Shown here piece after piece: positions 1,250 to 33,329 of a stretch of DNA of 64,000 nucleotides. The notes beneath the pieces were generated by a model, which was given only the letters and a program-made list of their open reading frames with translations, made no database searches and was not told where the DNA came from. Source of the DNA: Glaucostegus cemiculus (taxonomy: Eukaryota); the NCBI GenBank assembly GCA_976551045.1, contig CDPCPM010000011.1, positions 5,766,001-5,830,000 of the forward strand. The letters are read 5' to 3'. The position numbers and the translations under genes were made by a program. Position 1 is the first letter of the stretch, and each line of letters starts with the position of its first letter.

Positions 1250-1462
1250 CTTTACTGGAAATGGCATAAATATTGCTTTTATATTCTCCGAACAACTCTG
1301 AGGTTAGAATTCTCTTCATGCCACAGGACACATTATAGACAATTGTGTCATCCACTCTACTGAATCCAAATAAGATTACACTTGAAAAAAAAATCTTATG
1401 TTGGAAGTTCTGTGCAGAAAGACTTCTACAATTCCCAGATCTACACAGAACTCTACAGCTGT
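1250..1462 (-). pseudogene. Pseudo-exon, PIN-like C-terminal segment
   Basis: Acceptor tcctgcctcccccactgcag|. Reads TAVEFCVDLGIVEVFLHRTSNIR, reminiscent of the TASOR2-type 'C..AGI.EVLPYH' segment. 3' end uncertain. Confidence 0.3.
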
Positions 1463-1691
1463 CTGCAGTGGGGGAGGCAGGAGATGACATTAGTGCTATT
1501 CATCACCTTGGAGTGTTCAATGGCAAGTTTTTTTTCTCTAAATTATTTACAAGACCTGCATTTATTGCCCCTTTCTCACTACCCTTGAACCATTGCAATG
1601 CATTTACAGAAGGTGTTGGGTAGGGAGCCTAGCAGGATTTAGACCCAAACACAATGAAGGAACAATTATTACATTTCAGATTAGGGAGCAA

Positions 1692-1917
1692 CACACACAA
1701 AACGCTGGAGGAACTCAGCAGGTCAGGCAGCATTTATGACAGAAAATGAACAGACGACGTTTTGGTGTGGGACCCTCATCAGGAGTCCTGATGAAGTGTC
1801 TCGGCCTGAAACGTCAACTGCTCATTTCCCTCCATGGATGCTGCCTGACTGACTGAGTTCCTCCAGCATTGTGTGTGTTTAGCACCAGATTTCCAGCATT
1901 TGCAGTCTCTTTGTCTC
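1692..1917. mobile_element. Penelope-derived palindromic non-autonomous element with hammerhead ribozyme core
   Basis: Arms gctggaggaactcagcaggtcaggcagcat / atgctgcctgactgactgagttcctccagc, symmetric about tcatcagga-g-tcctgatga (centre 1785). CTGATGA...GAAAC-GTC at 1788-1815. Confidence 0.8.
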
Positions 1918-2064
1918 ACAGGTTAGAGTGCAATTTGGTGGTAAACTGATAGTTGTTACTTTGAAGGTTTCAGATTAAAAGTAAATATGATCCACAAATC
2001 ACACCAGAACATTCAGAGATCCGGGCCCATCCCAACAGCAATGATAGTTTTGGAATCATTTTAC

Positions 2065-2162
2065 CTGTCAGAATATTAATGGCATTACAAATATAAAGCA
2101 TCCTCGAGAGAAAAAAACAAAACCAGATCTTATTATACTCAAAGTGCAGGTGAAGATTCATG
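2065..2162 (-). pseudogene. Pseudo-exon
   Basis: Acceptor cttgccctcttttag| and donor acag|gtaaaa. Reads MNLHLHFEYNKIWFCFFLSRMLYICNAINILT. Confidence 0.35.
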
Positions 2163-2689
2163 CTAAAAGAGGGCAAGAGTGCTTGATATCAGTTTGGATC
2201 ATTTGTCAGACGTTTGGGGTGGCCATCCGAAGGCTATTTAGGGATGTGGAATGCCCTGCAGTGAGTTGGTGTCAAACTTAATTTGGTCTGGCTTTCCCGA
2301 AGAAAACAGTATGTTTTCTTAAAAAAATATTTCAGCTTGATATGGAGCCAAGAAGAGCAGAATCTCAATACTGGGCTTCACAGCTCTGCAAAGGCCCACT
2401 GCCAGCCTACAACACCCCACCCATCCTCAGTCCCTACCCCTCCCTCCCCACAACCCCAAGTGAAATTCCTTTCCACACTCCTCCTCAGATTTCATTTAAT
2501 AGACAACAGACGTTGGCCAAAATTTGAAATAAGGAATAAGGTGAGAGGACCAATTTGTGGCATGCCTTGAACCACCTGGTTGGGCGAGCGATGGTTACAA
2601 AGAAAAGGGACCAGAGTCAGGTTCTCTTCCCCATGTCCTGGAATATGGCTCCTCTTAATCTCTATCTTTTATTTAATCCATGATTATTT

Positions 2690-2975
2690 AAATCATGGCT
2701 TTAAGATTATGGGTGGGAAGTTCATGGGAGATGTCAGAGGGATGTTTTTCACCCAGAGAGTGGTTGGTGCATGGAATGCACTGCCTGGGGTGGTGGTGGA
2801 GGCAGATACATTGGACAGGTTCAAGAGATTGTTGGATAGGCGCATGGAGGAATGTGGGATAGAGGGATACGTGGGAGGAAAGGGTTAGATAGTGTGAGGT
2901 GTGGTTTGATGGACAGCACAACATGGTGGGCCGAAGGGCCTGTGTTGTGCTGTATTGTTTTATGGTTCTATGTAA
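2690..2975 (+). mobile_element. CR1-type LINE 3' fragment
   Basis: Encodes GFKIMGGKFMGDVRGMFFTQRVVGAWNALPGVVVEADTLDRFKRLLD (CR1 ORF2 C-terminus), followed by the ggccgaagggcctg 3' UTR. Confidence 0.92.
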
Positions 2976-3466
2976 CATGAAAAGCCAGTCTGGATGTCAA
3001 TGATCAGTTACATTTTTGATCAAATTTCCTGGATAGAAATGTGTAGATCAATTACTTTAACAGGAAAAAAAAAACCCTCCTAGAATAGTATCAAGGCAAA
3101 TAATTTGGAGTTTGATTTCAATCCTGATCAATGCAGACAGACATCATAAAGCATGCCTTTAATTAAAGATAATTGGGCTGAACATTTTGGAAGCTGGGAA
3201 TGAGGACATGACTGATCTGCTGACTCTGAAAAAAGAATATTTTTTAAAGATTACAGTAGTGAGTTGATGCGTTTAGTTTCAGTGCCAATATTAACCAATT
3301 ATAAGTCCTTGTACACTAAAATACAGAAGAAGCATTGATCATTTTCAACAGCAAAAACTCAAATGTATTATGAACAGAAACAATGAGAAAAAACAGAACA
3401 CCAAATGCCTACTTTTGATTACAGCATAAACCTGTCCCAGGCTTTAAGCTTATATTCTTGTACAGA

Positions 3467-3680
3467 TAACATAAGACATAGAAGCAGGAGTAGCCCAACT
3501 GGCCCTTTGAGCCTGCTCTGTCGTGCAATAAAATCATGCCTGATACTGTGGCTCATTTATTTTGCAGCTTGATTTCCTATATCCTCCAATTCCCTTCGAG
3601 TCCAAAAATGTATCTATCTCAGCCTTGAATACACTCAATGACTGAGCATCCACAGAGCACTCTGAGGTAGAGAATTCATA
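3467..3680 (-). mobile_element. CR1-type LINE 3' end
   Basis: acataagacatagaagcaggagtagccc... is the reverse complement of a CR1 3' tail. Confidence 0.8.
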
Positions 3681-3686
3681 TGCTAC

Positions 3687-3899
3687 CATGTGAATCAGCC
3701 CAAATACCAGCTACAATGTAGAAGTGAAATCGCTACCGTCTCAACTGGCTGAAAGCTTCTTATCGCAAAGAAATAGCTAATAATCTTTTCCAACAGTGTT
3801 TTTAACTGCTATTTGGATAGCACTGAGCTTATGAATGACAGAATTTATTGTGGTGATCAGGTCATTCCAGTCTATTCTTTTCATAGCATTTTTTAAACA
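3687..3899 (-). pseudogene. Pseudo-exon, possible PIN-like segment
   Basis: Acceptor atttattatag|. Reads CLKNAMKRIDWNDLITTINSVIHKLSAIQIAVKNT, then stops. Abuts a CR1 insertion. Confidence 0.3.
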
Positions 3900-4031
3900 C
3901 TATAATAAATATCAAGGAGTAAAAAAAAAATGATATGGACAAGATTATATTGAACCCAGTTTGAAATTCAAGACATACTGCGAGAAAACAATTTACTGTT
4001 TAGTGTGTTCCTATATTATCTATCAACGCAC

Positions 4032-4252
4032 CTCATAAACTTCTTGTCTGAAATAGGATAGAATTTATTTTTCACTGTAGTGGATAATTTCAGTGTAGCT
4101 GCAGAACCTCTCCCCACAATCTTGTGAAATCTTCTACTCTGCGTAATGTCGGAATATAGATGCCTGCAGCACCTTTTGCATTTTCATCTAAGCTATTTTA
4201 CACTGTAACATCTCGACAATTCTCAGAGATACTTGAGCACCAAGTCATTATA
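4032..4252 (-). pseudogene. Pseudo-exon
   Basis: Donor gag|gtgcgt. Ends with ...TVKNKFYPISDKKFM. Internal stops. Confidence 0.3.
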
Positions 4253-4309
4253 CTTAGTATTTAAGTTTATTTTGTACTTTAAATATCACTTAGTTTCATT
4301 GTGCATATT

Positions 4310-4525
4310 CAAGATACTGCAGCTACTGGAAATCTGAAACCAGAACAGCAAATGATTGGCAGATCAGATGGCACTGTGGAGCAGAGTATTATTGTTTCAA
4401 GTAAATGATCAATTATGTCTCTAATTCAATCCGGATCTTACGTCCATTTGTAGCATGGTCTGTTCCTCTCTCCATATTTGCTGCCTGACCAACTCAGTAT
4501 TTCCAGCATTCTCTGGTTATATTTA
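4310..4525. mobile_element. Degraded Penelope-derived element
   Basis: Contains the family motifs actgcagctactggaaatctgaaa and gctgcctgaccaactcagtatttccagcatt. Confidence 0.65.
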
Positions 4526-5775
4526 GCATGCTTGTTTCCATTCTTGGGAATGGTGGGTATATTGCCAAATATAAGGGGTACTAGAGATATACAATTGATA
4601 AGTAATTTTTATTGTTCCCATAACTGTTTTCCTATCAATGGTGAATGATGAAGATGTTATCCATATTTGTTACAAAGTACATTTCAACAGATCAGCAAAG
4701 CATTATGAGATACTATGTAGCAATAGCTGGAAGATGTCTGCATATTAGATTCTATGTACAGTTTTTAGAAATTGTGCCACTTTTTCCTCATAAAGTGTAA
4801 CCCGAACTTATTTGTCATCTGCAGCATTCCAACCAAAATTACCAACGAGAGCTGCTGAAATGAAAGCATTGAAGTTACACGCATTATGAATAGCATAGGT
4901 TCATAGAGATTGAGGCAGTTAGATTTAATGGGAGGCCTTTTTAAATTCAACACTAAAGCTGCCTATTTAAAAACCCTGAATGCTCAAAAATTTTATAATA
5001 GATTTGATGATCTTCTTGCTAGTTTCCATGCCTACAGAAATTTCTTCTGCTCCAATGCAACTTAAAGATTCTGTGTCAGCTCAAACAGATCAATCGGTGT
5101 GTGCACAATTGTAAGACGCAAACACTCTGCAAGGTCTTATCCAGAGACAGCACATTCACCATATCTGATTATGAGCAGGCATCAATATAAATAAGGTATT
5201 ACAAGATCTGAATATTTCAGTAATCAATATAAAACATGACTTCAAGCTACATAGTGCAACATGTCCTTTGGTAAATTGTTTGGAGACATTTTGAAAGAGT
5301 GGAGATTAGCCTTCCATTAGTATCTGTTCTGTGTTCATTTACTGCACCAAGTATCCATGTATTACGAGTTGTAGAGCATAGAATAAGGTGACTCTGAGGA
5401 AGGGAACCTCACATAAGCAAAGTGGGAAGCAGGCTCACCAGCTCCCAAGGAAACAGCTAGATCAGCACTCAAACAGAAAGCAAGCGTAACAACATCCAAG
5501 GAGGCACTCATGAAGGAAGCAGCCACATTAGCACAAGGTAGGGAGCAGGCATGGCATCATCCTTGTAGGAGACATTGACACTATGATTCACACAGGAAGC
5601 TCACATTCTAAAACCAATGTCGGAAGCACCTAACAGCCGGCACTCTCTGCACAGCTTACACCTGTACCAATACTATGTGAACCATATACTGTATAGAGAA
5701 GCAACACCACATCTGCAGCCACATTTGCGTCCATGCATATAAACCTACACCACCCCCATTGCATGTAATGCCATT

Positions 5776-5977
5776 TTGACAGAATATCATTAATCCTATA
5801 AATACAACAAACATGCATGAACCAGGACATTAAACTTATTTTGCAAGGCTGGCATTTATCATTTCTTGACAAAATACCATTAACCCTCTGAAACACCAAA
5901 GTAGTTTTGTACCTTATCACCATATAGGACAAGGTTAGTATTTTAAAGTTCATTGACAGAATTCCATTAACCATCTG
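5776..5977. repeat. Three spaced copies of a ~22-25 bp motif TTGACARAAT..CATTAAYC
   Basis: Copies start at 5776 (ttgacagaatatcattaatcct), 5866 (ttgacaaaataccattaaccctctg) and 5953 (ttgacagaattccattaaccatctg). Spacers are dissimilar. Confidence 0.75.
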
Positions 5978-6299
5978 ATGCAGAAATGCTGCTGGTCGCT
6001 GCAAAATGCCGCACAAGGTTTTCTAATCATTCTCTCGCGCTGCTATCTTTATATAAATTAAAATATCAATTAACTAATTTAGTCTGGATTTCAAGGTGCA
6101 CATCTGCAGATCTGTGTAGTTTATGAGCCCACTTTCTCAGATCTCATTGGCTTAACTTGTGTGTACAATTTACACTTTTTGCAGAAAGATATGTACTTTA
6201 GATGTTCCCTGTCTCATTGTTTAATGACAATAAAACCAAACCGAGGCAGCAATATGTAAAACCTGCTCTTAATCTGTTGAGAGAAGATACTTGCATCCA

Positions 6300-7915
6300 A
6301 GAACACATGAACTCAAGAAAATTGGAGCAGAAGTAGGCCATCAGGACCCTCCAGCCTGCCCCGCCATTCAATATGATCAAGGCTGATCTGTGCTGGCCTC
6401 AACTCCTCCTTTGTGCCGGTATGCTCTAGCCCTCAAGTCATCAACCTTTCGACTATTTATCTACCTCCTTCTTAAATTTTTTGAATGATCTGCCTTCTAC
6501 CACTCTTGGAGGTAAAGAATTCCAGAGATTCACTACCCCCTAAGTGAAGACATTTTTATGCACCTCAATTTTAAATGATTATCTCCTTATTTGTAGCTCT
6601 GTCCTCTTGGTCGAGACTTTCCCACTAGTCGAACCATCTCATTGTTTACCCTGTCAAGTTCTTTAGGATTTTATATGTTTTAATATAGAACATAAACACC
6701 TACAGCACAATTCAGGCCCTTCGGCCCACAAAGCTGTGCTGAACATGTTCCTACACTAGAAACTACTAGGCTTACCCATAGCCCTCTACCTTATGTTGCT
6801 CCATGTACCTACCCAACAGTCTCTTGAAAGACCCTATTGTATCCTCATTCTTTTAAACTCTGAGGAATACAGACCCAAAATGTGTAGCCTCTCTTGATAG
6901 GACATACCTCTCATCCAAAGAATTAGCCTGGTGAATCTCCTTCAGACTGCTTTTAATGCTACCATATCCTCTTCTCTGCAAGGGGGCCAAGACTGTGTGC
7001 AGTGCTCCAGATGTGGCCCCTCCAACACCTTGTGCTAATATAACAAAAGTAAGAATAGGGACCCTATACTCCAATCCCTTCACACTAAACAAAAAGATGG
7101 AGGAATCCGGTGGGTCAGGCAGCATCTATGGAGGGAAATGGACAGTCAACATTTCAGGTTGAGACCCTTCACCTGGACTGAAAGATAGAGGGGAGATAGC
7201 CAGTATAAAATGGTGGAGGGAAGGGGTGGAGCAAGAGCTGGCAGGTGATAGCTGGAGCCACATGATCTGCAGTCTCTTGTGTCTCACCTTTGCAATAAAG
7301 GCCAAAATGACATTTGCATTCTTATCTACTTGTCAGACCTGCTTGCTAACTTTTTTGATTTGTGTACAAGAACACTTTGAACTTTCTGAACTTCACTCAT
7401 ACAGTCTCTCTCCATTTAGATAACAATCCTTTTGATTTTTCTCACCAAAGTGCATGACCTCACACTTCCCCACACTACCTCAATTTGCCAGATATTTGCC
7501 CAATTATTCAATCTACTTATATCCTGTTGCATAATCCTAATGTACTCATCACAAAATATGCTCTCACATATTTTTCTTATCATCTGCAAATCTGGAAATC
7601 TTACATTTCATTTCCCCCTCCAGGTCATTAATGTAAATAGTTTAGAATTGAGAACTAGGAGCTAATCCCTAGAGTACGAGACCAGTTACATCTGTCTAGC
7701 CTGAAAAGGACTCATTTATACCAACTCTTTGGTTTTTATCTATAGCCAATTTTCAATCCATTTGTGTGCATTTCTTCTAATACCTTGGGCTCTTATGTAG
7801 CATCATGTCAAATGCCCTCTGAAAATCTAAATACATGACATCCACAGGTTCTCCCCTATCAACTCTCCCTGTAACATCTTCAAAAATTCTGAGCAAATTT
7901 GTCAAACATTGATTA
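6300..7915 (-). mobile_element. Degraded CR1 LINE with nested CR1 3' end (~6687-6845) and Penelope-derived insert (~7085-7285)
   Basis: CR1 tail ggagcagaagtaggccatc at the left end, RT-region remnants (tgtcaaatgccctctgaaaatctaaatac), and a second tail tagaacataaacacctacagcac. Confidence 0.8.
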
Positions 7916-8411
7916 CTTGCATTTTATGGAAAGTAAAACATGTTGCTGTAATAAAGTGAAACATGAAATAAACCTCTATTAAAATCTGGAACTGTTATTT
8001 GTAGGCACAGCAGCACAAATATGTGTTTTCTAAAGCACTGTAGTGCATGTTTCTGACTGATTTTTTCATTTAGTTCATTTGGGATAATTGCATAACCCTT
8101 GAATTGCATGTTTCTAGTCACAATATTATCCTGTACATGTCATAATATTTTTATTAATTATTTTATTCCCAAGTAGCAGTTTTGGTCTCAAGGCCCTGCA
8201 GCATTATGCAAAATTGTACCAATAAAAAAAATGTAATAGATTTAAGGAAGAACTGACTACATTGATTAACATACTGCAATATGTTCGAATCACATGAAAA
8301 AAACACTTCCTGTTTTTTTCTTAATCATTAAGTCATCAAACCTTATTAAAATGATCATCTTCTGACACATTTGGAAAAAAAATCTCAAACAACAACTTCT
8401 CGTAAACTCAC

Positions 8412-8655
8412 TTAGCTGTAATTTGGCACTGCATCGCAGAGTCCTTGGTTTCTCTTTATTGGTGCAGTCATACTGCAAACCTTGCAATACTGTGATCTGA
8501 TTTCCTGGCCAGACTAGCAATCCAGCATTATAAATGTAGCAGAACTATGATTTGCTGGGCACTTTTAAATCATTTTCAATGCCATCTGGAGAAGCTTGTC
8601 TCATGCCACTGGTATTTCACAAGATGTATTTAAAAGTCAACAGATAACAATGAGC
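8412..8655 (-). pseudogene. Pseudo-exon, PIN-like segment
   Basis: Acceptor ttatgcag| and donor taa|gtgagt. Reads NQITVLQGLQYDCTNKEKPRTLRCSAKLQL, resembling recalled TASOR 'LVEILSYHNCDSQTRNAPELDCLIRLQ'. Confidence 0.4.
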
Positions 8656-8924
8656 CTGCATAAACCTTAACAAGACCTCAATTTAAATACCATGCACAGA
8701 ATTGGAATCCAATCTAATGTAGGGTCCTCAGGAAGAATACAGTACAAATTCACTGAGATGCTTGCTGATCTAAAGAAATAACAAAAAAGAAAATTGGGTG
8801 TTTTCTTTAGAACACAGCAGATTACAGAGGCAATATATAGGTATATTCAAACACATGGAAAGATGAGGTACAGGAGCAAAAGGCAGTAGAATGGCAGAGT
8901 GTTTAATTTTCTGGACATATTCAG

Positions 8925-9215
8925 CATCCTGGACTATTGATTTGTGGATGAGTTCAAATCCAACCACAAGAGGAATTTCAAATCAAGTAATCAGGTAAAT
9001 CAGGAATAAAAAGTTATTATCAGTAATGGTAGCTATGAAACTATGGGGTATCACAAAAATCCATCTGGTTCTCCAATGTCCTTCAGGGAAGGAACTCTGC
9101 CTGGTCTGGACTGCTTGTGACTCTTAACTCTCCTCTGAAACGGCTGAGCAAGACACTCCATTCAGGGCAATTAGAAAAGGGTGATAAGTGTAACTTTGAT
9201 ACGAACAAATAAGTA
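8925..9215 (+). mobile_element. tRNA-derived chondrichthyan SINE
   Basis: B-box-like gagttcaaatcc, body ccatctggttctccaatgtccttcagggaagga, tail cagggcaattag. Confidence 0.75.
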
Positions 9216-9717
9216 AAATAAGAGCATATTAATGCTGTCAGTGTATGTTTTGAGAATAAAATGTCTGTGGATAAAAAGATGAAACATAAGTACCTTAGGA
9301 AAAAGTAATGGAACAGTCTCAGCAGAGAAGTGAGATTATTGAATTAAATTCCAGGACTAGCAGGTGAGACCAAAAAAATCTCAAAATTAAAGAACGGATT
9401 GGTAAAGCAGATGTAAGGGTATGGAAGCTGGGTGGGTAAGTGTAACTTTGTTCATTAAAGGTACGTGCTGATACAGAAATGTCAGGCTGTTTCCCCATTG
9501 TAACTTCAATGTACTTTTATTAACGATCTTTGCTTGCCATATAGAATTTATAACGCAAAAAACTGGAACTTTGTCTCAGCAGATCTATGCCAGTTCCACA
9601 CTAGCCTCCACCCACTCTGTTTGCTTTATTCCCCAACACTGATGCACCTTTCTTTTCTTTCTTATATAGTCATCATCTATACAGTTCACCACAAACACAC
9701 CTCAGCAGTAGACTCAC

Positions 9718-9805
9718 ATTCTCATCAATATCCACATAAATAACTCTTTTTCATAATTCTTTCCTTGATGTACTGGTGACTGCGTCCCATAGCTTTGGAT
9801 TCTCA
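9718..9805 (-). pseudogene. Pseudo-exon (88 nt)
   Basis: Strong acceptor ttttttctacttcag| and donor aat|gtgagt. Confidence 0.45.
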
Positions 9806-11479
9806 CTGAAGTAGAAAAAATTATGTTTGTCTGGAAAAACAAATGCAGGCCTTGCATGCAACACCTACATCCTGTGAATAAATAAAAATCTTAATAAACA
9901 CCTTCATAATCTTAAAGTGCTATATCAGGTCAGTAAGGTATAAATGCTCCGGCTCTTGTTACTCCTTACTCAGAGTTTCGACATCCATTAAAAAATCTTT
10001 CTTTTAGCACTTTTGCAAGTGCTTCTACTTTTGTAATATGGAGAGCACAAATGTGCAGAAACATTTTAATCCAAATTAATACCAATATAAAGCCAACACT
10101 TAAATATTGAAATGAACATTTTCTTTGTATTCGGAATTGAAATTTGATTCTTATTCTAGCAGAACCACTACTTAAAATTTAGCACATTAATAGTGAGTTG
10201 TCAGAATGTAAAAATAAAACTTATTTTGTGCTTGAGTAACTGCATATATAACTGAGATTGTCCATTAAGGGGAATGCTCTTGAATAGTCAAATCGCCTCA
10301 TTATTCTATTGGTGTGACAGATCACATATTATTATTCATTCAAATTTCAAACACAATACTTCCACAATCAAGACATTCCCTATTCAGTGAATGTGCTTTT
10401 TATTGTCAGGCATCTAACACCAGTGATTGCACCATCTAATACTCAAGACTGTAGAGTTTAGTTTTTAAATCCTCTGCTAATTTAGCATTATTCTTTCATC
10501 TATCTGCCTATGTCTTACAAGTCCTCATTATAACTTAAAACATGCCTATTGCTAAAATATCATCTCAAGGGATTAAGGGAGGCAACTGCAACTAATTTTG
10601 AATCAGAAACTTGAAGTAAAAGTCAAATATCATGCAATCTAAAACTTTCTCCACTCTCAACATTATTATTCTCTCATTGATCCAAGATCATGCAGGGAAC
10701 TAGAGAAGAGCCAATGTATTGTCCTCAGTGACAAACCACCACATTTGACACCCTTGATTGGCACTAATTATATCAACCACTAAATTTGACAGACAACAGG
10801 TTTATGAGACCATCCACAGGTTGCAACCCATTCACCTTGACCCCAACTCCATTTCCATCTGACAATTTATTCACATATTTGTCCCTTAGCTACTGGGTAT
10901 TTCATCAAGACCCATATTCTTGAGCTAACCCATCTGTCTCAATTTTCTTGTCACATAATTACTCTTGCTCATTCGTAAGTTTACTGATATTTTTAATGTC
11001 TACCTTTTGTTGGGCTCTTTCCTTCATTTCAAGATGGCTATTGTGATACTTTCTCAAAAGATTCACCAATCAGTTCTCAATCCTCGCTTGTTACAACCCA
11101 AAGTGCCTTTTCTCTTAACACAACTTTTATGAATATCCTTGAACTTCAAAATGCCCTCCATCCTGCCCACAGCATTGAGTCTCACTGGCTGAAATCATTT
11201 GCAATATCGTTTGTGACCAACATTAGGCCAGTCCCTGCTTTGCCTACTCCTCTATTCCAAGTCTTCATGTTCTTTTTATTTCATGGAGGGACTTAGAATA
11301 GACCAGCAACAGAAGCGTTCGTTGACAAAACCATTTAGCTTGTTTAGCTCTCAACTGAAGTTCCACATCTTCACAAGAACTCTGGCTGCCAGTGTAGTAA
11401 CTAAATAACCTAATCAGGAAACAATGTACAAAGCCGGAGAGTTGAGCTTCATCCAAACTATCATCAAAACTGGTTTCCT

Positions 11480-11830: not shown

Positions 11831-11849
11831 TACCTCTGAATCACAACAC

Positions 11850-15392: not shown

Positions 15393-15439
15393 TTTTTTAG
15401 GGAATCCAACTGAGTGTTAGTATTATGCATACCAAGAAA

Positions 15440-19118: not shown

Positions 19119-19291
19119 CTTAAAGAAAGATACAGCATGGGAAGCAAATTATATGCCACTAATTTCCATACCTTTTAACAATGAGATATTCAATTCATTA
19201 AAATTTAAATTACTAACATTTATAAACACAAACAGAATTATACACAATTCAGATTGTGCTTTCAGTGCAAGCACTTAATCCTCTGCCTTAC

Positions 19292-21608: not shown

Positions 21609-22179
21609 CTAGGCAATCAAATGTTTTACAGTCAATTAAATGTTCTAAATGTGTTAAAGTGTGTCTTTTTGCAATTAAGGCAAACATATAACCAATTCAT
21701 GTACAGCCAAGTCCTATAAACAACAAGAGATAAATGACTAGCTAATCTATCTCTAGGGTCTGTGCTCCAGAGATAATTTTTGGCCAGAACAGTGGAAGAA
21801 TGAGCATTAGTGATGTTTTTGATGGCACCCTTAGATATAGTGTGATTATCACAGTTCAACATCGGGAGGTTCTTGAAAATGCATTTTTTGTCAAATGCAT
21901 TTTTTAGTAAAAAAATGTAGGTCATTTGAACTTTGAGTATTTTGGAAAAAAACAAAAATGTTAGAAATAAATTAAGTTTAAAAAGGAATGAAATAGAGCC
22001 TACTGATATTAAAAAAGGTGATGTTTTAAAATATAAATACAAAGAGTTATAGTAAATACACATAGAAATCTTTCAAAGATTATTATTGTATGGTGTGCAG
22101 TTTTGAGTTGTACTCCATGGGAAGGATATTGAAGTAACAAAAAATGTTCTTTTGAAATTTACAACAAACTTTGCATTGT

Positions 22180-22620
22180 CTTTCTTAGGCGATGCCTTGG
22201 ATGAATTGCTTGCATCCTGGTTTTATGGGTTGTGAGGCAATTGAAAAAACTACTATGGGACTAGCAGGTCCTTCCACAAATGGAGCAGGAGATGCCTGGC
22301 AAGCTGACCAGGTGGGAAGTTTGTGTGCTCCTTCTATTATTTATGCTAGGCTTCTGTGTGTTCCTGATGTGTGGACTTAACACCACCAATGCCATCGTGA
22401 AAAGTTCTGCTCCCTTCTGGGCAGTCATGGGCCAAGAGTTACCATGAGTTCATGGGAATGTTACACTTTTTCCAAGGAGGCTTTGAGAAAATCTTTGAAT
22501 CTTTTTCCTCTGTCTATCTGATAACCTTTTCTCATGACAGAGCTCGGAATAGATTGCCTGTTTGGGAGTCTGCTATAGGGCATGTGAACCACATGGTCTG
22601 CACAACAGGTCTCATTGTGC
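22180..22620 (-). mobile_element. RTE-clade LINE 3' fragment
   Basis: CADHVVHMPYSRLP...GKRFKDFLKASLEK matches the RTE C-terminal motif WAGHVVRMPD.RLPK...KRFKD.LKASL. Confidence 0.8.
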
Positions 22621-23173
22621 ACCTTTAGTAATTGCCTAGTATGAAGAAATGCACTCATTCAAATATTACTTTATTACAACAGGTGGCAAAAAAGGATGAT
22701 TTCATTGAGGTGTTTAAAATCATGAGGAATAGAACACAGCAGGTAAAACTAGTTATCACGTCTGCATGATCAGCACACACCTAGATACGATAAGAAGATA
22801 AAAGAAAAGCTAACTGCCATAGAATAGAATGCTGTTTGAGTACAACACAGTACAACAACTTGACTGTCATATTAAACAAAAACTGTTCTCTTTCAGACCA
22901 GTGAAGTTGTGTATTTTGGGTATTACACTACTCCTAACAAAAGTTTTGTTGGAAAAAGTGCTAGCACATGCAAAACACTCACTGAAGAGTCAGAAGTTGA
23001 CTTTCCCAATGGAAGTTAAGAGAAGCTGGCACAATTTTGCTCCACTCTTGTTTAAGCAATTTTGAACTGCACAGTTTCAGTGCATCACTATACAGGGAAT
23101 ACCAGCTACTGCTTTCCTTTGGAGTTGTGCGAATGAACTTCTAGGCCAATGTATTAGGTGAGATTGTTCAGAG

Positions 23174-23293
23174 CAATCGTTGTGCTGTTCATTACTTCAA
23201 ACTGCTTGCCCATACTGCACAATGTTAGTGGTTAGTGTTTAAAACAATTGTTATGCTGTTCATTACTTCAAACTACTTGTCCACACTGTACAA
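23174..23293. repeat. Diverged tandem duplication, period ~71 bp
   Basis: caatcgttgtgctgttcattacttcaaactgcttgcccatactgcacaa versus caattgttatgctgttcattacttcaaactacttgtccacactgtacaa. Confidence 0.85.
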
Positions 23294-23355
23294 AGTGAGC
23301 ATGTTTGAACTAGATGTCGTAAAATAAATTATTTTGCCTAGAAATTGGAATTTAC

Positions 23356-24268: not shown

Positions 24269-24989
24269 CTGCAATATAGAATTATTTAAAAGTTCTAGAA
24301 AGAAAAAAAATAAAAATATCCCACTTAAGCTGGAAAGGAGCTCTTTCACAGCTCAAATATTCATTGTGATATTCCTCCCACAACTTTATTAATTTTCTTT
24401 CCATAGTATTTTTCCAAATGTATTGGAATTAAATTAAATTAAATGTGCAAACAATCTGATGCCACAAACAAAATTCTTGGAAGCACTAGTGTTTGAGTAC
24501 GATTGTTTTGATCCTTCTTTCAGTATTAGAGGTGACAACACAGGCAGATTGAATATTTTATTCTCTTTGCACCTAGCAGCTTCATCAAGCTTTCTGTCCA
24601 ATATGACAGGCACTGTAGTTGAGAGATCCTTTTGATACAATGACTCAAGATGCCCTATGATTTTCAGTGCCATGGTGGAGTAAGATGTATGTTAAGCTGC
24701 AGTGTTCTGGGGAAATCTGTGCACAGGTGACATACATCAGTTCTTCAGCCATTTGTGTAAAGTCCTCCATCATTTATGTCCTTCTTGAGTTACTGACACT
24801 GAAACCCCACTTTCAGAACAGAACTCATTAACAGAGCTCTACACCTCCCACACTAGCCCATTGTGAACTCTCCATGCATTCATGTTAGCTTCACTGAGGA
24901 TAATTTATTTCTCTTTTCTTCTTTCCCTTAACTTCAGGTCATCCACATGCCTGCTGCCTGTGTCCCACAAGGCAGCATTCACCCATCAC

Positions 24990-25215
24990 CTTAGGCTGAT
25001 ACTCGAGTAAGCAGTATCAACATTTTAAAATTTACAGCCCCTATGTGTTCAAATCCTCACTGATCTCACGCCACCCTATCTCTGCAAATTCCACCACCCT
25101 GACGGGTATCTACACTTCTCCATTTCTGGCCTCCTGAACATTCCAGAATTTAACCACTCCACCATTCGCAGTGGGTCTTCAGCTGCCAAGGCACAAACCT
25201 AAACAGTTCCCTTAT
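24990..25215 (+). mobile_element. L2-like LINE 3' fragment
   Basis: ttttaaaatt...tgttcaaatcctc...gccaccctatctctg...tctggcctcctg...cttcagctgccaagg is typical of L2 3' ends (FKI..FKSL.GL.PPYL). Confidence 0.6.
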
Positions 25216-25929
25216 CTGTTCTGGCTAATTATAGGACTCCAAATCTACCAATATGGTTGACTCTTAACTCAGGGGCAATGAGGGATAGAAAACAAAACCG
25301 ACTTTGCCTGTGACATCTTCTTGTTAATGGATCATTATCTTGGTAATAAATAGTCTGAAAATAACTTAAAAACTACTTCAGAGCTAACCTGAAGGTCACA
25401 TATTTGAAACTCTTGAACAAGACCATAATTTCTTCTGTCAGTTTCCAGACTGTAGACAGAGTAACATCACAAGAATAATAGCTCAGATAGCACTAAGATT
25501 TGTACTCAGCATAACTGCAAATTTAACTACTGAAAAAGACTCTTTCATTGGTTTAAAATAGTTACCATTACAATGGATCTGGCTTAGAAAAAAAAGTGCT
25601 CAAAATTTTAAGCAGTTTTATTTTTTTTTAATTATGCCCCAGTCTTCCAAAAGAATCTCAATGATGCCACCTTGTGATTCATAACATTGACTCTACGGCT
25701 AGAGGAGTAAGCTGGTCCAGGTTGTACAGCTTCTTACAAAACCCTCATGCCTTTGTACCACTAGACAAATAACACTGAATGTACATTTCCAGCGTCGTTC
25801 ATAAGCATGAGAGCCCGGGGAAACAATGCCTCTTAGATATTTGTTCACAGAAGTTGGATGCCTCTACTGGTATCAACATTTATTATCCATCCCTAATGCC
25901 CTTTGAACTAACAAAGACGGTAGATTCAT

Positions 25930-26390
25930 TGATTCAGAGTTATACAGCATGGAAAGAGGCTCTTCAGCCTAACTCTTCCATGTCGACCAAGATGCCTATT
26001 TACATTAATCCCATTTGCATGCATTTGGCCCATATTCCTCAAAACCCTTCCTATCCAAGAACTTGTCTGAATGTCTTTTAAACATTGTAATTGTACCCAC
26101 CTCTACCATCTCCTCTGGGAACTTGTTCAATACACCCACCACCCTCTGTGTGGAAAACCTGTCCCTCAGATCCTTTTTAAATCTTTCCATGCTCACCTTA
26201 AACCTATGCCCTCCAGTTTTAGACTCCCCTACCCTGTTAAGAACACTGTGCCTATCTGCTGTATCTACGCCCCTCATAATTTTATAAGTTTCTATAAGGT
26301 CATTATTCAGCCTCTTTCACTCCATGAAAAATAGTCCCACCATCCAGTCTCTCGCTATAAGTCAAACTCTCCAGTCCAGGTACTGTATAT
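25930..26390 (-). mobile_element. CR1 LINE 3' fragment
   Basis: Encodes MRGVDTADRHSVLNRVGESKTGGHRFKVSMERFKKDLRDRFSTQRVVG. Confidence 0.9.
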
Positions 26391-27988
26391 GCACAAGATG
26401 TGTTGAACCTCAATGCCTTTGATATAGGCTTGCATTTGGGGCTTACAGTTGGCAAAATGTTTGTCACTGAAATCCCAGGGATGTCCAAGTGAATGATTGC
26501 TTCCTTTTTCTCTGTGTTTTTTTTTCTCCATCTCCCCTTTCCTGCATCTTTATTTTCACTGATCACTTTGCTTTCAGATTGGCAAACTATTTCTCTCTCG
26601 GGATGCTCAGAGAAAGTGAAGCGACTCCTCAGTCAAGATGGCCCCCCTTTAAAGCAGTGGTTAATCATGAACATCCTGGACAAGAGAAAGATCCTAGACA
26701 GAGAGAAGAGACTCCCTTACCCTGGTAAGAAAACTGATTATCTACTCTATGCCCTCCAAGTGCAATTCAAGCAACGCTTTGTACAACTGTAACATGACAT
26801 TCCAACTCTTGTACTCAATGGTCTGGAATAGGTTGCTGGAAAACAGATTCAGTTTTCAAAGATGAATTGGACAAACACCTGAAGAGAAGAAATTGCAGGA
26901 CTACGGGAGAAGGGAAAAATGAATAAGACTAATTGGATTGCTCCACAAAGAGTCCACTTGGCTCAGTAGCCTATCTAACAGTTCTATGTAATAGGAACCC
27001 TCACTTGAAACAATGGAGGTTTTATAGTTATAATAGGGGGTGCTTATTCCTCCTCTAACTGCTGAGAAAGAGAGTTCCATTGTGATCTCTTGATTTCTCT
27101 CACCCTCCAGCACGTGGCAAACACATATCAGGAATTACCAGGCAAGGTCGGCACAAAGTTCAGAATGGAGAATGGAAAATTGCTGAATCCCCCCAAGGCT
27201 GCTGACAACCTGGGAGCTCTGCAAGGCCTCCAGTCATAAAGTTGACACCTGAATAAAGAAAAATGTTTCAAAGCCAGATTCAATCTATTAAGAGATTTAG
27301 AAATATTTAATATATACAATACTGAGAAAAACATTACACAACTTAATTCATTTTTTTCTGCAGATTCATTAATTTTAGATTGTGTTTGTTAAGGAAAGGA
27401 GTAAGCAATATTCTTGTCCAAATATTGACATGGACGCACTAAGTTTATGTGTTTATTATGTTGTAAGTGCTGCTTTTGTCCTGATTACTCCAAAGTTAAT
27501 ATAAAGGATAAATGAATAAAGGATTAACAAGATTTAGGAATGCAGACACAGTTTATGGAATGTAATTGGTGTGGACCGTGGGAGATTGAACACAGCAAAG
27601 TTACACTGCTAAAATCCAAACAGTTAAATGAAATGAACCCCTACACACAAACTCCAGTCCTCCCACCAGGTTGCACCAGATCAAGTGCGATAACCTCTGC
27701 ATGGAATGAAGACACTTGAGTGCAATAAACCCGCAGCGCAGTACCTAGGAAGATGGGCTTTACTTGGACTTAAGGAATTGATTTAATGATTTCCATACAC
27801 AAAGTGCAACAACTTCGTTCATCAGAGATTGTGTATTACATGGTATAATCCTAGTGTGTTTGAAATGGTAATAAAAGTTTAAAGATCCATCCCAATTTAT
27901 CATGCTTTCAGCCCCGTGTTTACTGACATCTTGGCTGGACTTTTAAGCAAATTACAGTCAGGACATTGCCAGTCAGTGATGGAGTTAC

Positions 27989-28233
27989 TTAATATTCTTG
28001 CTACTAGCTGTAGACAGATTTGCACCAAATATTGGTCCAATAGGTTTTTCTCTCTTCATTCTGCAGTGTTATGCATCTTGGGACATTTTAACAAAATGCT
28101 TGGAAAAATTCAACCCCATTGCTAGACAAAGTCAGAATGGAATATGTTCACTTTTCAAGTTGTATATTTATGGAAGTTTCATTTCTCTTTCAATTTTTCT
28201 TTCAATTCTCATTGCAATTTAGTTTGTAACCAG
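27989..28233 (-). pseudogene. Pseudo-exon
   Basis: Acceptor atattttag| and donor taa|gtaact. Fragments GVEFFQAFC and KNLLDQYLVQI. Confidence 0.3.
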
Positions 28234-28800
28234 CTAAAATATTTGTATGACTGTGCTGTTGCTGCGAGAGGAAACAGTGACCCTTCTGTCAACACTGGAA
28301 CATAAATAAGGTGCCACTGGCAGCACAGATTATCAGCTCAAGACCTGGCTTCCCTGCTGTCACCATGGGGCAAATATCGCAATTCTCAGCTACATCCTAC
28401 AATGTAGACGTAGAAATTCTCAAGCAGCGCGAGTGAAAATACTTGCTGAGCTGCTCCAGACAGAAAGTTCAGCAATATATCTGTGGAATTAGCCCTGAAT
28501 TTTAAACCTCTGACTTAATGCTGAAATTTAGTCAAAAATATTTTTATCCTGCCCCAAGTAAATTCTGCCCAGCTTATATAATTTTGTTTTGGAAAAGAAG
28601 TTTCACACCTTTCTCCCATTTTATTTGCTGTTCTATTTTATGTCTTAGTCATCAACATTTATGTACAATTACTTGCCCACAAAACTCTAAAACATGAGAA
28701 AGTAAGGAAGACAGTTATGTAATGGGATTGCAATTATCAAGCTGAGGGAAAACTATTTCCCATATGTGATGTGAAGGTTGTAAACATTGCTTTTAGATAC

Positions 28801-29094
28801 ATTGTTGGAAAGGCTTCAATGCAAAAAACATTACAAATTGTCTTCGAGTTTATGGACTCTTTTTCACATTGTTCAAGGTCTTGCTTGATATGATATGCAT
28901 TGTACTCATTGAGCTTGGCTTCTTCAGAAAAGATGGTTCAGACAATGCCAAAGAATAGGAACAAATGCAGGAATCTCCAGTTGTCAAAATTTAGTCCATA
29001 TGGTATTATTAAAAGAGCAAATATTTACACGCCCTCTGGAAATATCACTGCATAGTGTTGGAAAGTACTGGAATAGTGTGGAGTGTGAGCGAAA
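28801..29094 (-). pseudogene. Pseudo-exon, SPOC-like C-terminal strands
   Basis: Acceptor tttttcaaattttcag|. Reads QHYAVIFPEGV*IFALLIIPYGLNFDNWRFLHLFLFF, compared with recalled TASOR 'GYLFLL...VLHALFLF'. Confidence 0.45.
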
Positions 29095-29181
29095 CTGAAA
29101 ATTTGAAAAATTGCAAATAGTATTGGAGACTAAGTGAACATGCTATTATCCATTTCTGGATTTCTTCACCCTAGTTTTCAC

Positions 29182-29347
29182 CCTCTTCTAAAATCAGTCG
29201 TTCATGCCATATCATAGTTCTACACGTCAGCAGTTGTTGGCCATTTTCTGCGTAATAGTTTTTGAAGGAAATTTTGGGATAGTAATGGACCATGAATTTG
29301 TTTGAACCTGTCCACTTCTGACAAACACATCTTTTTTGTACTTTCTG
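29182..29347 (-). pseudogene. Pseudo-exon, SPOC-like N-terminal part
   Basis: Acceptor ttttactttcactgcag|. Reads KMCLSEVDRFKQIHGPLLSQNF, compared with recalled 'VMSIDHLKQKIPPALF'. Confidence 0.35.
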
Positions 29348-30355
29348 CTGCAGTGAAAGTAAAACCCTGTCTAACTGCTATGTCTTCTAGTCTTGAGGCA
29401 CTGAATCCAGTTAGAACACCCTACTGCCATCCTGAGTGAGATTGGCAAGTTCATTGCATATTAGGAATCACACCTGGGTCCTGTCTGACTGGAATGTCCC
29501 AGTGAGAACAACAGAGAACTTAAATCCACCTCAAATGCACAGCTAGAGATAATTATAAGTTTGCTACTATTGACAATACTTTCAAATCATATTTGCCAAG
29601 CAATATCTAGTTTGCAGCTCTCCATCTTAAAAGGAATACATTTAAATATCACTTGAATTAACAGCCACAAATAGACTGCCTGATATTTCGGGTTTAAAAG
29701 TAGACTGACAGCCCAGAAAACTAAGGATGAACAAGGGCTTGCCCTGGTGTCAGAATTCACTAATTAACACATTCAAACTTCTAGTAAAACCTCTCCACTT
29801 TGTCTTTTCGCCTCTGGTCTGCCATGCTGCATCTTTGCCAAGTAGTTACTAGCCGCAGTGAGTAAATATCTCATTGTGACAGTCGCTAACATGCTGAACA
29901 GTAATGGAGTCAGAACAGAAACAGCCACTTTTAATCAAACCTGTCATCATTTGTTTTTCTCAACACATCGAAAATGCCATCCTCTCCCACACCAGCACAT
30001 TACTTATACAATGCAGCCGCAACTGAGAGGAAGCTCCTTCTGATAATCTGGAACCTCCACAGCTTGCTAGCAAGGGGAAGACACAGATTGGTGGTCTGGA
30101 AAACACAGTGACCAAGCACTGCAATTGCATATGTCTGAATGAATATTACATAAATGACTGGCACTGTGACGCTGTCTCACTGAAGGCTGGGAGTGCTGAA
30201 GAGCCTTTTGTTTGCCAAAATGTGAAATTAAAGACAACGCCACATGTACAACCCACCCTCATCATAAGGAGCTTTGTTGTTGGGACCTAGGAGTCACTTC
30301 TCTATTTTGGCCGTTGAGGGACATTCAGTAATGCATGCTGTTCATTAATGCTCAC

Positions 30356-30453
30356 AAATATCTGCCTCCAGGGAATCCTATGATATTGAACCTGAAGTGA
30401 ACTCACTGATCCTAATGGCAGTTCACTTCTCATATTTCTGACTGCACTTCAAG
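30356..30453 (-). pseudogene. Possible pseudo-exon
   Basis: Acceptor atttattgcag| and donor ttt|gtgagc. Confidence 0.25.
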
Positions 30454-31189
30454 CTGCAATAAATACTTTTGAATAAAGAATTCTGTTTAAAGTTGTAAAG
30501 TACACCTCTATCATTTTATTTGGCTCAGTACCCAAAGGAAGTTCTCAAGCTCCAAAGGAAAGGGAGATTGCAATGAAACCACTAACTGTTCAATGTGTTG
30601 GAGTACTCTAAGCAACTGGTAACAAATTCTCAGTCAGATTCTAACATTGTGGGAGTTTCTTTTTCACAAATTTTTGGTCTTTAATTTTTGGTACTTTTTT
30701 TCCAGTCTTTTATTGAAACCCCTAGATAGAGCAAAATAAATAATGGTAATTGGCAGCAACATACATGTTAATGCAGTGCTGTGATAGATGCCAACAGCAT
30801 AAAAGATTAAGCAGAGAAGGTGATTAATTATTCAATTAAATAATAATTTACTCCTCTCTAATGAGTTCATACAATAGCATGACTTTTAGTACCAAAGCTG
30901 TGGTCAGTGTTCAAAAACAAAAAGATACATTAGTTCTCTAATCAAAATGTTGAATGAAGGAATGACAACTTAAGCACACTAACCTGTAAGATCATTACGT
31001 GACACACCACAAGAAACTAGAGGGTTCTACCTATTTTCCAGTCAGCATGCAATACAGCTGCGTAAGCTGCTCTAAAATTGGTCGCTGCACAAGCCATAAT
31101 CCAGCAACTTTTCTCAATTTAAGAGATAGTGTGTGACTGGAGCCGGAGAGGTTGGTCTTTGTGGTTTACATTCAGTATATTGTTCTCAC

Positions 31190-31379
31190 ACAGACCCAAC
31201 TTCCACTTCAGTGACAAACTGCTGCAATCGGAAAGGCTTTCAATTTCCCAGCATAGTGGTGCCTGGTACAGTGAGGGATAACAATACTGGGAAAATTATA
31301 AGAATAAGTATATAGCTGGTTAAATCCTGTCCATTCTAGTGCTCTTCCCCTTGTGGCATGGGTAATTTCTTCCTTATAC
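31190..31379 (-). pseudogene. Pseudo-exon, pseudo-PARP (DUF3715)-like end
   Basis: Pyrimidine tract ctctttcctctattctacgtaag|. Reads GFNQLYTYSYNF...TRH...FPIAAV, compared with recalled 'TQYYFYEY...RPRHVCPYAVV'. Confidence 0.35.
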
Positions 31380-31676
31380 CTTACGTAGAATAGAGGAAAG
31401 AGATTATAATCAAGAAATACCATTTCCTTTACAATTTCCTTCTGCTGTTCACAGTTCTTGTTTCTACTTGTTTGTTATTTGTTCCTATCTGTTCTTATCA
31501 TCTCACTGCCTCAGTCCTTCTCTTGTCCCCAAGTGCCCTCAGCTCAAATTCTGCTTTCAGTAACATAGATCCTATCTAGAGGCTTTCCACAGGTCACTCT
31601 GTTATCACGGTTAACAGGGATTACATTCTTGCTCAGAGCTCTGCTGTGATAATGCTCATTTGTACTATTAGGTTAC

Positions 31677-31827
31677 CATTCGGAGACTCTGTGAAATTGC
31701 AGCTCGCAGCAGAATCACAATTTCACACTCCAATGTCATGAAGAAACCAGCAGATAATCGATGCTAAATGAATTATGACATGCATTTGGATTACTTCAGG
31801 AAACTGTAAACATTATGGTATAATGTT
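31677..31827 (-). pseudogene. Possible pseudo-exon
   Basis: Acceptor ctatttcag| and donor atg|gtaacc. One frame ends ECEIVILLRAAISQSLRM. Confidence 0.25.
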
Positions 31828-33239
31828 CTGAAATAGTAGCTGATATTATCATATTATATCATGAGACTAAACAACCCATCAGAAGTTTCTTGCCATTCAT
31901 AAAAGAAGCCAAACAAAACTGAGAGTGCCTGTATCCAGACAGCTTTTGTATTCTCCAGTTAAAGAATGTAACAGCAAGTATTTGATTTTCTGCTTTTTGT
32001 TTGACATTGACCCTCAGTTCTATCCCATTTCTCTCTCCCTTCTCTCTAACTCATTTATTGACTGTGTCATGTCCTAAGAGAATCATGCACGTCTTAACTA
32101 GAACTCCAAGAGATTACCGAACAGAGCGGTACAATGCTGATGAATGGTCCGGTCAAGCTGCAGAACCAGGACCCTGCTGGATACCCCACTGAGCAAGAAA
32201 ATGAGGCAGGCATCCAGAAGTGGGACACACACCTGCAACCTGGTATCATCAGACCACAATCTGTTTGAGGAATCACAGACCCGAAGATCTAGGCATCAGT
32301 AATTTTATGATGTGGAGTGAGCACAATTGTGAAGCCCAGCCCGAGTTCCTGAATATTTGGACGGGTGGAAGATGTTCTAGCTCTCAGTGTAAATTATCCT
32401 TGCCCATGCTCACTATACCAAAAATCTAAACCATGCTGCATAGGTTCATTCTACATCAGGCATTGATCTTCAGTCTTTTTTCTAATACGCTAGTTATTTG
32501 GATCAAAATTTAAGGTTTGTACTTGACCCGAAAGCAGAATTGTTTTATGAATTGGAGCCGAATACTGGGCAGGACATGCACTGCCCATGACTGAAAAATC
32601 TAAATCACCTATAGCCAGTTTGGGACATGGACTGTGCCATACAGCTACCCGGTCAGTTTTTTTGAGCACTATCACTTTGCAATACTGCAAAGAAAGTAAT
32701 GATGACATCCACAGTTTTATTCCAAATGAAAAATAGAACAACGCCATCAAAGAGAACCAAACAGACAAGAATTGTGTCACAGTATTTTTCCTGATTTTGA
32801 TTTTCTTCATTTGACCAGCTATAGTTCCTGGATTGTTACCTGAAATATCAGTCAGGTTATTTCTCTTTCTGATCTCGGCAAAATAAAGGACTAAAAAGGA
32901 ACCAGCACACAGCATTGTATTTTGTGAAGGAAGAACCTTTATATTACTATCTGAGAAACACCGAGATCCTGAATATTTTGTAGTCGGTTATGTCAGTGTT
33001 CTATTAGCTGCTTGGTAGAACCACCACTTTTGTATGGAACTCTAAGGAAGCATCTTTTTCTATAAAATGGCTACATGGAAGTGCTTGATTACTATTTTTT
33101 ATCTAGGAAGTTAAATGAAAGATTTTTTTTACAATATCATTCTTAAAGACCTGACAAATCTCACACTAAAAATAAAATGTCATGACAATATGCCAGTGAG
33201 TACACTAACAAAAGCACCTTGAGCATATTTAGAAGTTAC

Positions 33240-33329
33240 CAAATCATTTTTTTAGGCTATCCTCTCATTAATTACATATTGAAATCATTGCCACATTCCT
33301 CTCTAGGCTTTGACTTTAATGTCCTGGTA
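33240..33329 (-). pseudogene. Possible pseudo-exon
   Basis: Acceptor tcctgctctgtacag| and donor ttg|gtaact. Reads FQYVINERIA* with stops. Confidence 0.25.

Follow-up and report, generated by a model that had tools for sequence, protein, structure and literature searches.

Does the minus strand of this window (the whole 64-kb stretch of DNA that was analysed) carry a dead gene of the DUF3715 family, and if so, where are its traces and which kind of member was it? Three DUF3715 genes are reported for vertebrates (PMC10578480). TASOR (FAM208A), the core of HUSH, has the order DUF3715-SPOC-DomI-DomII/PIN (PMC7532188; PDB 6TL1), and TASOR-like proteins have DUF3715-SPOC-DomI (PMC10578480); TASOR2 (FAM208B, TASORB) is the core of HUSH2 (PMC11532391, PMC7619638), and TEX15 is a piRNA-pathway DUF3715 protein (PMC10578480). 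HUSH is reported to appear first in cartilaginous fish (PMC7619638). The original prediction placed a 32-kb, multi-exon pseudogene, possibly of the TASOR family, at 1250–33329. Above-chance traces were found only about 9 kb outside this interval, upstream on the same strand. With slightly better than even confidence, these belong to an intron-containing DUF3715-family gene (TASOR/TASOR2/TEX15) that died long ago and is traceable at 43.3–43.1 and 42.5–42.3 kb.

Within 1250–33329 itself, some 20 minus-strand segments had been said to combine splice signals with protein-like, broken frames. They were not listed individually; the named motifs were tested, together with candidates found in this analysis. 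Generic splice matrices gave 90 acceptor-donor pairs on the minus strand; the plus strand had 81, and 100 Markov nulls had 87±12. Splice pairs are thus at background, and about 20 exon-like segments could be picked anywhere. Protein-likeness scored 90 on the minus strand, below the 111 on the plus strand. There was a mild excess of minus-strand ORFs of at least 80 aa (19 vs 12.1±3.6, P 0.035; 15 on the plus strand), and two minus-strand splice pairs were strong (27248–27104 and 9805–9701). None of 358 non-repeat ORFs of at least 48 aa reached the Pfam cut-off, no intact exon was found anywhere in the window, and no neighbouring gene was identified within the 64 kb.

Database searches were similarly blank. 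No TASOR-family or TEX15 model was reported by Pfam for the read-through frames and ORFs, a weak negative because eight of eight repeat-derived ORFs also went unnamed. Four queries against PDB with phmmer did not match TASOR, while the positive control matched 6TL1 (E 7.6e-43). A homologue search with the 29-kb frame gave none among 365 candidates (lengths 421–2000 only), the 8.4-kb ORF had no phmmer match among 1.84 billion representative proteins, and Rfam reported nothing.

The picture is different at 42–43 kb. A profile of DUF3715, the pseudo-PARP domain, was built from nine family proteins (six TASOR-like, three TEX15-type). In a blind HMMER scan it gave 14.2 bits at 42479–42372 on the minus strand, with the next independent site at 4.6; none of 310 whole-window nulls reached this score (null maximum 13.8). 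The main remnant, likely a decayed exon, spans 42345–42476 (44 codons, profile columns 136–181). It was the top match in 6/6 sub-profiles and 9/9 leave-one-out profiles, as against 0/120 column-shuffled ones, and it aligns in one register with all nine family proteins at 9–14 identities. Stops interrupt it at 42446, 42407, and 42362, and it is bounded by a weak acceptor at its 5' end (score 4.4), which may coincide with the start of a TASOR exon, and a weak donor-like GT at its 3' end (2.8).

A second, weaker minus-strand piece at 43135–43295, likely the remnant of an upstream exon, corresponds to columns 79–135 and is distinct from the main remnant in both DNA and profile columns. Blind alignment joins the two collinearly, with a two-exon, frameshift-aware score of 39.7 vs 27.7±2.4 in nulls (maximum 35.5, reached by 0/150), 29.5 when reversed, and 30.9 on the other strand. 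With a length bonus the upstream piece is the window's best site for columns 80–135; for the adjacent 1 kb its P is 0.018 with the bonus and 0.098 without. Stops at 43274 and 43211 break it, and its frame shifts at least once. The two pieces resemble successive parts of DUF3715 in the correct order. Their exon-like frames are disabled by five stops and at least one frameshift over both, their splice-like ends are weak, and an intron-like gap of about 660 bases lies between them. The end of the main remnant also resembles a known exon boundary: it terminates on a Gln, 24 residues after a conserved Asp, followed by GT. This spacing is 23–25 in 6/6 TASOR-like proteins, the Gln is absent in 3/3 TEX15-type proteins, and an intron lies at that position in all six loci carrying the motif.

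The trace does not extend further. Across the whole domain, the family profile was matched above nulls only at 42–43 kb, and only for columns 79–181. Directly downstream, a stretch at 42289–42344 (minus) resembles the end of DUF3715 as a possible continuation and may be chance (adjacent 1 kb P 0.10 and 0.37; anchored extension 0). Anchored extension from the core gave 0 on both sides (0–1.1 upstream), columns 1–79 were not found upstream of the remnant, and the best site for columns 182–212, at 50648–50604, is on the wrong side of it. The best tblastn E-value at 42.4 kb was 1.6. Pfam PF12509 reports neither 42–43 kb piece nor those of the original prediction at E up to 10, with HMMER's filters applying and the pieces short and broken; it does report 24–28-residue fragments of intact relatives. 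A retrocopy had come into question when the spacing was seen to coincide with that of a fish gene model short of 31 residues, but this intronless reading of 42.8–42.3 kb was unsupported (P 0.69–1.0).

Could all of this be chance, with ordinary intronic or intergenic DNA and its repeats producing look-alikes both at the predicted motifs and at 42–43 kb? Some caution is warranted: corrected for the use of five profiles and several parameter sets, the P for the DUF3715 match is nearer 0.01–0.02, and Markov nulls understate real DNA, as a presumed chance DomI match on the plus strand beat 372/372 window nulls. The margin in a sliding-segment table was modest (best real score 22.3 vs null maximum 19.8). 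Chance matches of 11.5 bits to SPOC (in a repeat) and 9.4 bits to TEX15 (plus strand) exist in the window, and the background-level splice and protein-likeness statistics, the blank Pfam, PDB, tblastn, and phmmer searches, and the lack of anchored extension all fit such an account. It leaves unexplained why none of the 310, 120, and 150 nulls matched the 42–43 kb score, why there is a second collinear piece, and why the main remnant ends on Gln plus GT at a known intron position; we consider it unlikely, though a serious alternative.

On the preferred reading, a dead DUF3715 gene, the remnant agrees in strand and position with the TASOR-family guess of the original prediction, which used other coordinates. 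That guess gains from a DUF3715-like remnant upstream on the same strand; its placements inside 1.25–33.3 kb are unsupported. The predicted motifs do stand on the minus strand where they had been reported. The domain order read from them was not borne out, with four target windows scoring 14.2, 16.2, 13.5, and 14.5 vs null means of 15.5, 14.9, 14.2, and 15.6. When the nine family proteins were run with tblastn, the lowest E was 0.055, for a plus-strand site. An ordered chain over the predicted range scored 154.4 vs 148.1±6.1 by a path that avoids the motifs, and the whole chain scored 168.3 vs a null maximum of 168.7 and 167.2 in the reversed window. The predicted sites were never among the top three of the 24-column segments. 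With splice pairs at background, family profiles at null level, and Pfam, PDB, and protein searches blank, the proposed 32-kb gene anatomy was not recovered.

Individually, these candidates vary. The putative DUF3715-end motifs (31217–31324, minus), which would come next in the exon series, share one open frame (FNQLYTYSY at 31324–31298, PIAAV at 31231–31217). The first ranks 1 of 127,946 positions for its nine profile columns and the second 729, with 14% of 15-kb nulls equalling the match of the first (P 0.14), an acceptor score of -0.9, and P 0.19–0.35 for columns 182–212. The SPOC-like candidates (28950–29312, minus; window z 1.2–1.7) share a frame of their own with stops between (DRFKQIHGPLL at 29312–29280, FLHLFLFF at 28973–28950) and rank 216 and 1263 of about 127,900; rank 216 is that of the best nearby site, outside the predicted register. 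A candidate exon at 27104–27248 (minus) has strong splice sites (acceptor 11.6, donor 8.8) and an end resembling the start of DomI (rank 28 of 127,928), with the DomI window at null level. The PIN-like motif P..L.C...LQ (8448–8416, minus), with exon-like pieces before it, forms a candidate region at 8412–10040 (ranks 151 and 289; window z 0.4–0.8), whose pieces match no Pfam family.

How much these results mean depends on what could have been detected. SPOC after DUF3715 was at null level, with simulated detection of 0–2/30 at 20% decay; the score for DomI after SPOC was reached by 14/80 nulls, with simulated detection of 0/30, and two weak DomI-like sites compete, at 33.36 and 27.17 kb. At such decay SPOC and DomI could hardly have been detected. 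For the TASOR-profile alpha/beta and PIN region, the best score in the window was 3.3 bits, short of the expected signal; that of a decayed true TASOR orthologue was detected in 27/30 simulations at 20% decay and 13/30 at 30%, as against 7/30 at 20% for the PIN of a diverged paralogue. PF24630 and PF23314 were blank. The PIN test argues against a canonical TASOR orthologue only. For SPOC, DomI, and a diverged PIN the tests have little power, so these searches do not refute the predicted placements.

A version of the preferred reading would keep the predicted anatomy, with the 42–43 kb pieces as earlier exons followed by the DUF3715 end at 31.3 kb, SPOC at 29 kb, DomI at 27 kb, and PIN at 10–8.4 kb. 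The order fits TASOR (PMC7532188), the top-ranked 31.3-kb motif begins at the homologous intron position, the SPOC window at 30–26 kb is 4th and 2nd among the top windows listed, strong splice pairs stand at 27.2 and 9.8 kb, and the low detection rates blunt the negative results. This must be set against the null-level windows and segment ranks, downstream searches reached by 70/80, 14/80, and 16/60 nulls and chains by 29/40 and 3/40, a competing DomI-like start at 33.36 kb that precedes the SPOC motifs, and the requirement that one intron be 11 kb long and end in a poor acceptor. Comparison with a relative, in single shallow contigs throughout, also counts against it: there is a 1-base indel at 28850, several frameshifting indels fall in the 21.7–21.9 kb ORF, and divergence is 7.6–8.5% in two exon-candidate pieces vs about 6% in two pieces without candidates; in two other exon-candidate pieces it is lower, at 3.6–4.1%. 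We regard this anatomy as possible, on the doubtful side.

Which family member the dead gene would have been is a separate matter. Judged by sequence likeness, the remnant can likely be placed at the family level only (TASOR/TASOR2/TEX15), and we lean toward a TASOR2-type gene or a further TASOR-like paralogue over TASOR itself. Set beside TASOR, the two pieces look like the central and later stretches of its DUF3715, and among pairwise alignments one with a fish TASOR scores highest (11 identities in 30, no gaps); unlike TASOR, they contain stops, and SPOC, DomI, and PIN are not above chance. TASOR2, compared by description only, has the same family domain, and its main human isoform drops the pseudo-PARP exons. 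The gene may instead have been TEX15 or a TEX15 copy, for which the absent SPOC and PIN signals would be expected. The main remnant is in register with 3/3 TEX15-type proteins (9–10 identities) and ranks first with a TEX15-only profile (7.7 bits), and birds, percomorph fish, and cod are known to have lost TEX15 (bioRxiv 2021.06.08.447603). Yet the TEX15 domain (PF15326) was not found downstream on the minus strand with a two-sequence profile, the exon-end Gln is missing from TEX15-type proteins, and the surveyed cartilaginous fish have an intact TEX15 (bioRxiv 2021.06.08.447603); this identity appears rather unlikely.

Two further accounts do without a whole dead gene in the predicted range. 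If the pieces are orphan exons left by a duplication that was old and incomplete, this would explain why columns 79–181 alone are traceable, with nothing before or after; low detection power explains those blanks equally well, and no source of such exons is evident because divergence is similar from all nine family proteins. We think this very unlikely. Alternatively, the DUF3715 exons may have been shed by a living TASOR2-type gene with an internal promoter, perhaps at about 36 kb, and coding exons beyond the window, much as the commonest human TASOR2 isoform is without the pseudo-PARP domain (PMC7619638, PMC11532391). By eye, a purine-rich, first-exon-like stretch is present at about 36.2–35.9 kb, and it could belong to either strand. 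Across 42 kb downstream of the remnant there is no intact SPOC, DomI, or PIN exon, and a living gene of this kind is highly unlikely here.

The surroundings of the remnant are repeat-bearing. An interspersed repeat, presumably CR1/LINE, adjoins it upstream (43426–44041, plus; a self-repeated interval), and its ORF matches no Pfam family. Another copy of that repeat class, near 26 kb, has heavy read piles; RNA depth is otherwise about nil outside repeats at 16–33.6 kb (three runs from a relative, tissue unspecified). Stop-bearing exon remnants with intron-like DNA between them and repeats adjoining recall old unprocessed pseudogenes, but here there are just two faint pieces, and no parent gene can be named.

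If the preferred reading of a dead family gene is right, it would make no protein and would be decaying neutrally, with some 20% base change if it started as a typical family member. Downstream of the two pieces, the 1250–33329 range would hold its later exons, worn below detection. By analogy with its family (PMC7532188, PMC10578480), the living gene may have taken part in RNA-directed silencing of transposons as a pseudo-PARP factor, a role that surviving paralogues probably shared. It could even be a TASOR-like copy that arose when the genomes of early vertebrates doubled, and a fourth DUF3715 gene for vertebrates, extending from about 43 to 1 kb, dead here and perhaps alive in other cartilaginous fish; we hold this to be quite improbable, and if true, there would have been a third scaffold of the HUSH type. 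The literature searched, largely outside subscription journals, described neither such a gene nor such a loss. At present the locus is a faint pseudogene trace. A dead family member here would mean that the lineage lost TASOR2 or TEX15, or else that a fourth paralogue has gone unrecognised, and would indicate which arms of silencing are dispensable to a repeat-rich genome.

Sequences for profile building came from metagenome contigs, in which a short-motif scan yielded 38 loci. Six of these (L001, L010, L018, L020, L023, and L029) include a DUF3715 (pseudo-PARP) exon, which in each begins at an intron inside a conserved aromatic motif. One metagenome locus led to DUF3715 proteins, including P0002, which matches TASOR 6TL1 (E 7.6e-43), and from there to seven long proteins: two fish TASOR, one from amphioxus, one unnamed, and three TEX15-type, with TASOR2 not among them. 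Protein P0013 was classed as TEX15-type by alignment, Pfam detecting only DUF3715 in it. Our profiles comprised nine sequences for DUF3715, four for SPOC, and two each for DomI, alpha/beta-PIN, and the TEX15 domain.

Ordered, broken, exon-like pieces resembling DUF3715 are found on the minus strand at 42–43 kb. In an unfiltered search of 1278 six-frame chunks of the window, the DUF3715 profile scored 14.2 bits at 42479–42372 (next independent site, 4.6). Neither the 310 whole-window nulls, which peaked at 13.8, nor the 120 column-shuffled profiles, which peaked at 10.7, attained this value. This main piece ranks first with all six sub-profiles, three of them without shared sequences, and all nine leave-one-out profiles, and nine of nine family proteins align to it in the same register. 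There is a weak acceptor at its 5′ end (score 4.4; such sites occur about eight times per kb), and 44 codons on it ends with Gln and then GT (donor 2.8), which, as was noticed after the fact, is the position of an intron in 6/6 unnamed metagenome loci. The best site for profile columns 80–135 is 0.7 kb upstream, at 43292–43148 (P 0.018 when a length bonus is applied and 0.098 when it is not). Jointly the two pieces, which contain five stops, score 39.7 vs. 27.7 ± 2.4, unmatched in 150 nulls.

Our profile places the pieces in the DUF3715 family, whereas Pfam's model does not; neither Pfam PF12509 nor PDB searches detect them. Extension anchored on the main piece scores 0, sliding segments exceed the null by little (22.3 vs. 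19.8), columns 1–79 were not found, and chance matches of 9–11.5 bits arise with other profiles. To allow for the use of five profiles and of several settings, the corrected P for the signal was set near 0.01–0.02; coincidence seems an unlikely explanation for it. For columns 182–212, the best site lies upstream of the pieces, at 50604–50648 on the minus strand (score 21.4; the highest 1-kb null reached 19.0); this match, which consists partly of a splice-donor word, is either coincidental or a tandem copy's end.

The original prediction was of a 32-kb minus-strand TASOR-family pseudogene at 1250–33329, with domains marked by FNQLYTYSY and PIAAV (31.3 kb), DRFKQIHGPLL and FLHLFLFF (29 kb), and P..L.C...LQ (8.4 kb). 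All five motifs lie where it put them. In fixed registers they rank 1, 729, 216, 1263, and 151 among ~128,000 positions, the first (31.3 kb) being equalled in 14% of 15-kb nulls and having a poor acceptor. Splice-flanked segments were not in excess on the minus strand (90 acceptor-donor pairs vs. 81 on the plus strand and 87 ± 12 in 100 nulls), nor were minus frames more protein-like than background (frameshift-tolerant score 90 vs. 111 on the plus strand). ORFs of at least 80 aa are slightly enriched on the minus strand (19 vs. 12.1 ± 3.6, P 0.035; plus strand, 15).

Homology searches likewise gave the domain placements no backing. A frameshift- and intron-aware aligner scored the four regions at null level (14.2, 16.2, 13.5, and 14.5 vs. 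null means of 15.5, 14.9, 14.2, and 15.6), and tblastn of nine family proteins, a set without TASOR2, found no significant match in the whole window. Pfam, run on 42 read-through frames and pieces of 1250–33329, reported neither TASOR nor TEX15 models; PDB searches with sequences from this range were blank; a word-based homologue search limited to 421–2000 aa gave 0/365 candidates; and phmmer with the 8.4-kb ORF found no match among 1.84 billion proteins. An ordered domain chain through the range scores 154.4 vs. 148.1 ± 6.1 (46 nulls) along a path that bypasses the motifs. Run along the full minus strand, the chain reaches 168.3 vs. 156.1 ± 5.6 in nulls, which peak at 168.7. The reversed window gives 167.2, and a chain in one wrong domain order 169.2. 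A DomI-like start and end at 33284–33358 and 32574–32685 (minus), in conflict with the predicted order, form the top DomI window at one setting (z 3.5) and not at another (z 1.9). At 383–1038 (plus) a weak TEX15-domain match, at 9.4 bits equal to the null maximum, is probably chance; a minus-strand Pfam ABC_membrane match below cut-off (30667–30831, E 0.0002) is probably a pyrimidine-rich then lysine-rich stretch.

Searches for further domains downstream of the 42–43 kb pieces were also at null level. That the pieces are an orphan duplicate is improbable. In simulations of decaying genes, a typical family member whose best DUF3715 exon still scores ~14 bits has changed at about 20% of its bases. 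At that decay SPOC was detected in 0–2/30 cases, DomI in 0/30, and the PIN region in 27/30 for a true TASOR orthologue and 7/30 for a diverged paralogue. Since detection is otherwise so low, the null results tell against canonical TASOR only.

Part of the stretch at 27–33.4 kb was present in 13 of the 24 sequencing runs listed, none of them containing more than 24% of its words; they were therefore taken as relatives rather than the same species. RNA depth over 16–33.6 kb (three runs of one relative, 18–24% of each read, tissue unknown) is almost confined to repeats, as are all 15 read joints shown of 59. The exception is ~2× depth in one direction at 31262–31848 in one run, near zero in the other two; this overlaps the start of the predicted 31.3-kb piece. 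Single shallow DNA contigs of another relative, in which errors are possible, diverge by 3.6–8.5%, with frameshifting indels at 28850 and 21.7–21.9 kb, and show no clear exon-restricted conservation. A moderately repeated element at 22150–22750, within the supposed disordered exons, has read depth in 4/4 runs and was missed by self-comparison.

The window is ~38% GC, with interspersed repeats evident by self-comparison, which we take to be CR1/LINE and SINE elements. Rfam has no matches in it, and no intact coding exon nameable by Pfam was found (0/358 non-repeat ORFs of at least 48 aa pass the cut-off). It is quite improbable that the 42–43 kb pieces are exons which a TASOR2-type gene, itself still alive, has lost. 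The purine-rich minus-strand stretch at 35880–36230 is first-exon-like, with a TATA-like word ahead and ATG triplets then a donor-like GT near 35.9 kb; its plus strand has strong acceptors at 36090 and 36144. It may be a promoter or 5′ exon of some gene.

A dead DUF3715-family gene is the modestly favored reading, probably a faint, new pseudogene of this known family. It gains credibility because strand and order agree with the original prediction, which was derived from different coordinates; that agreement may not be fully independent, the whole window having been in view. The 32-kb gene model is unproven. Within the dead-gene reading, and overlapping one another, the full predicted anatomy is doubtful, and a TEX15-type gene or a fourth paralogue are each rather unlikely. 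No dead or fourth DUF3715-family member in sharks or rays was found reported in the literature searched. The 42–43 kb pieces, presumably without function today, would belong to an unprocessed pseudogene read right to left and be its best-conserved exons, with a repeat directly upstream and the remaining exons extending into 1250–33329. Two papers describe DUF3715 as needed in TASOR for transposon silencing and exchangeable with that of TEX15 (PMC7532188; PMC10578480). When alive, to judge from its family, the gene would have taken part in the RNA-directed silencing of transposons.
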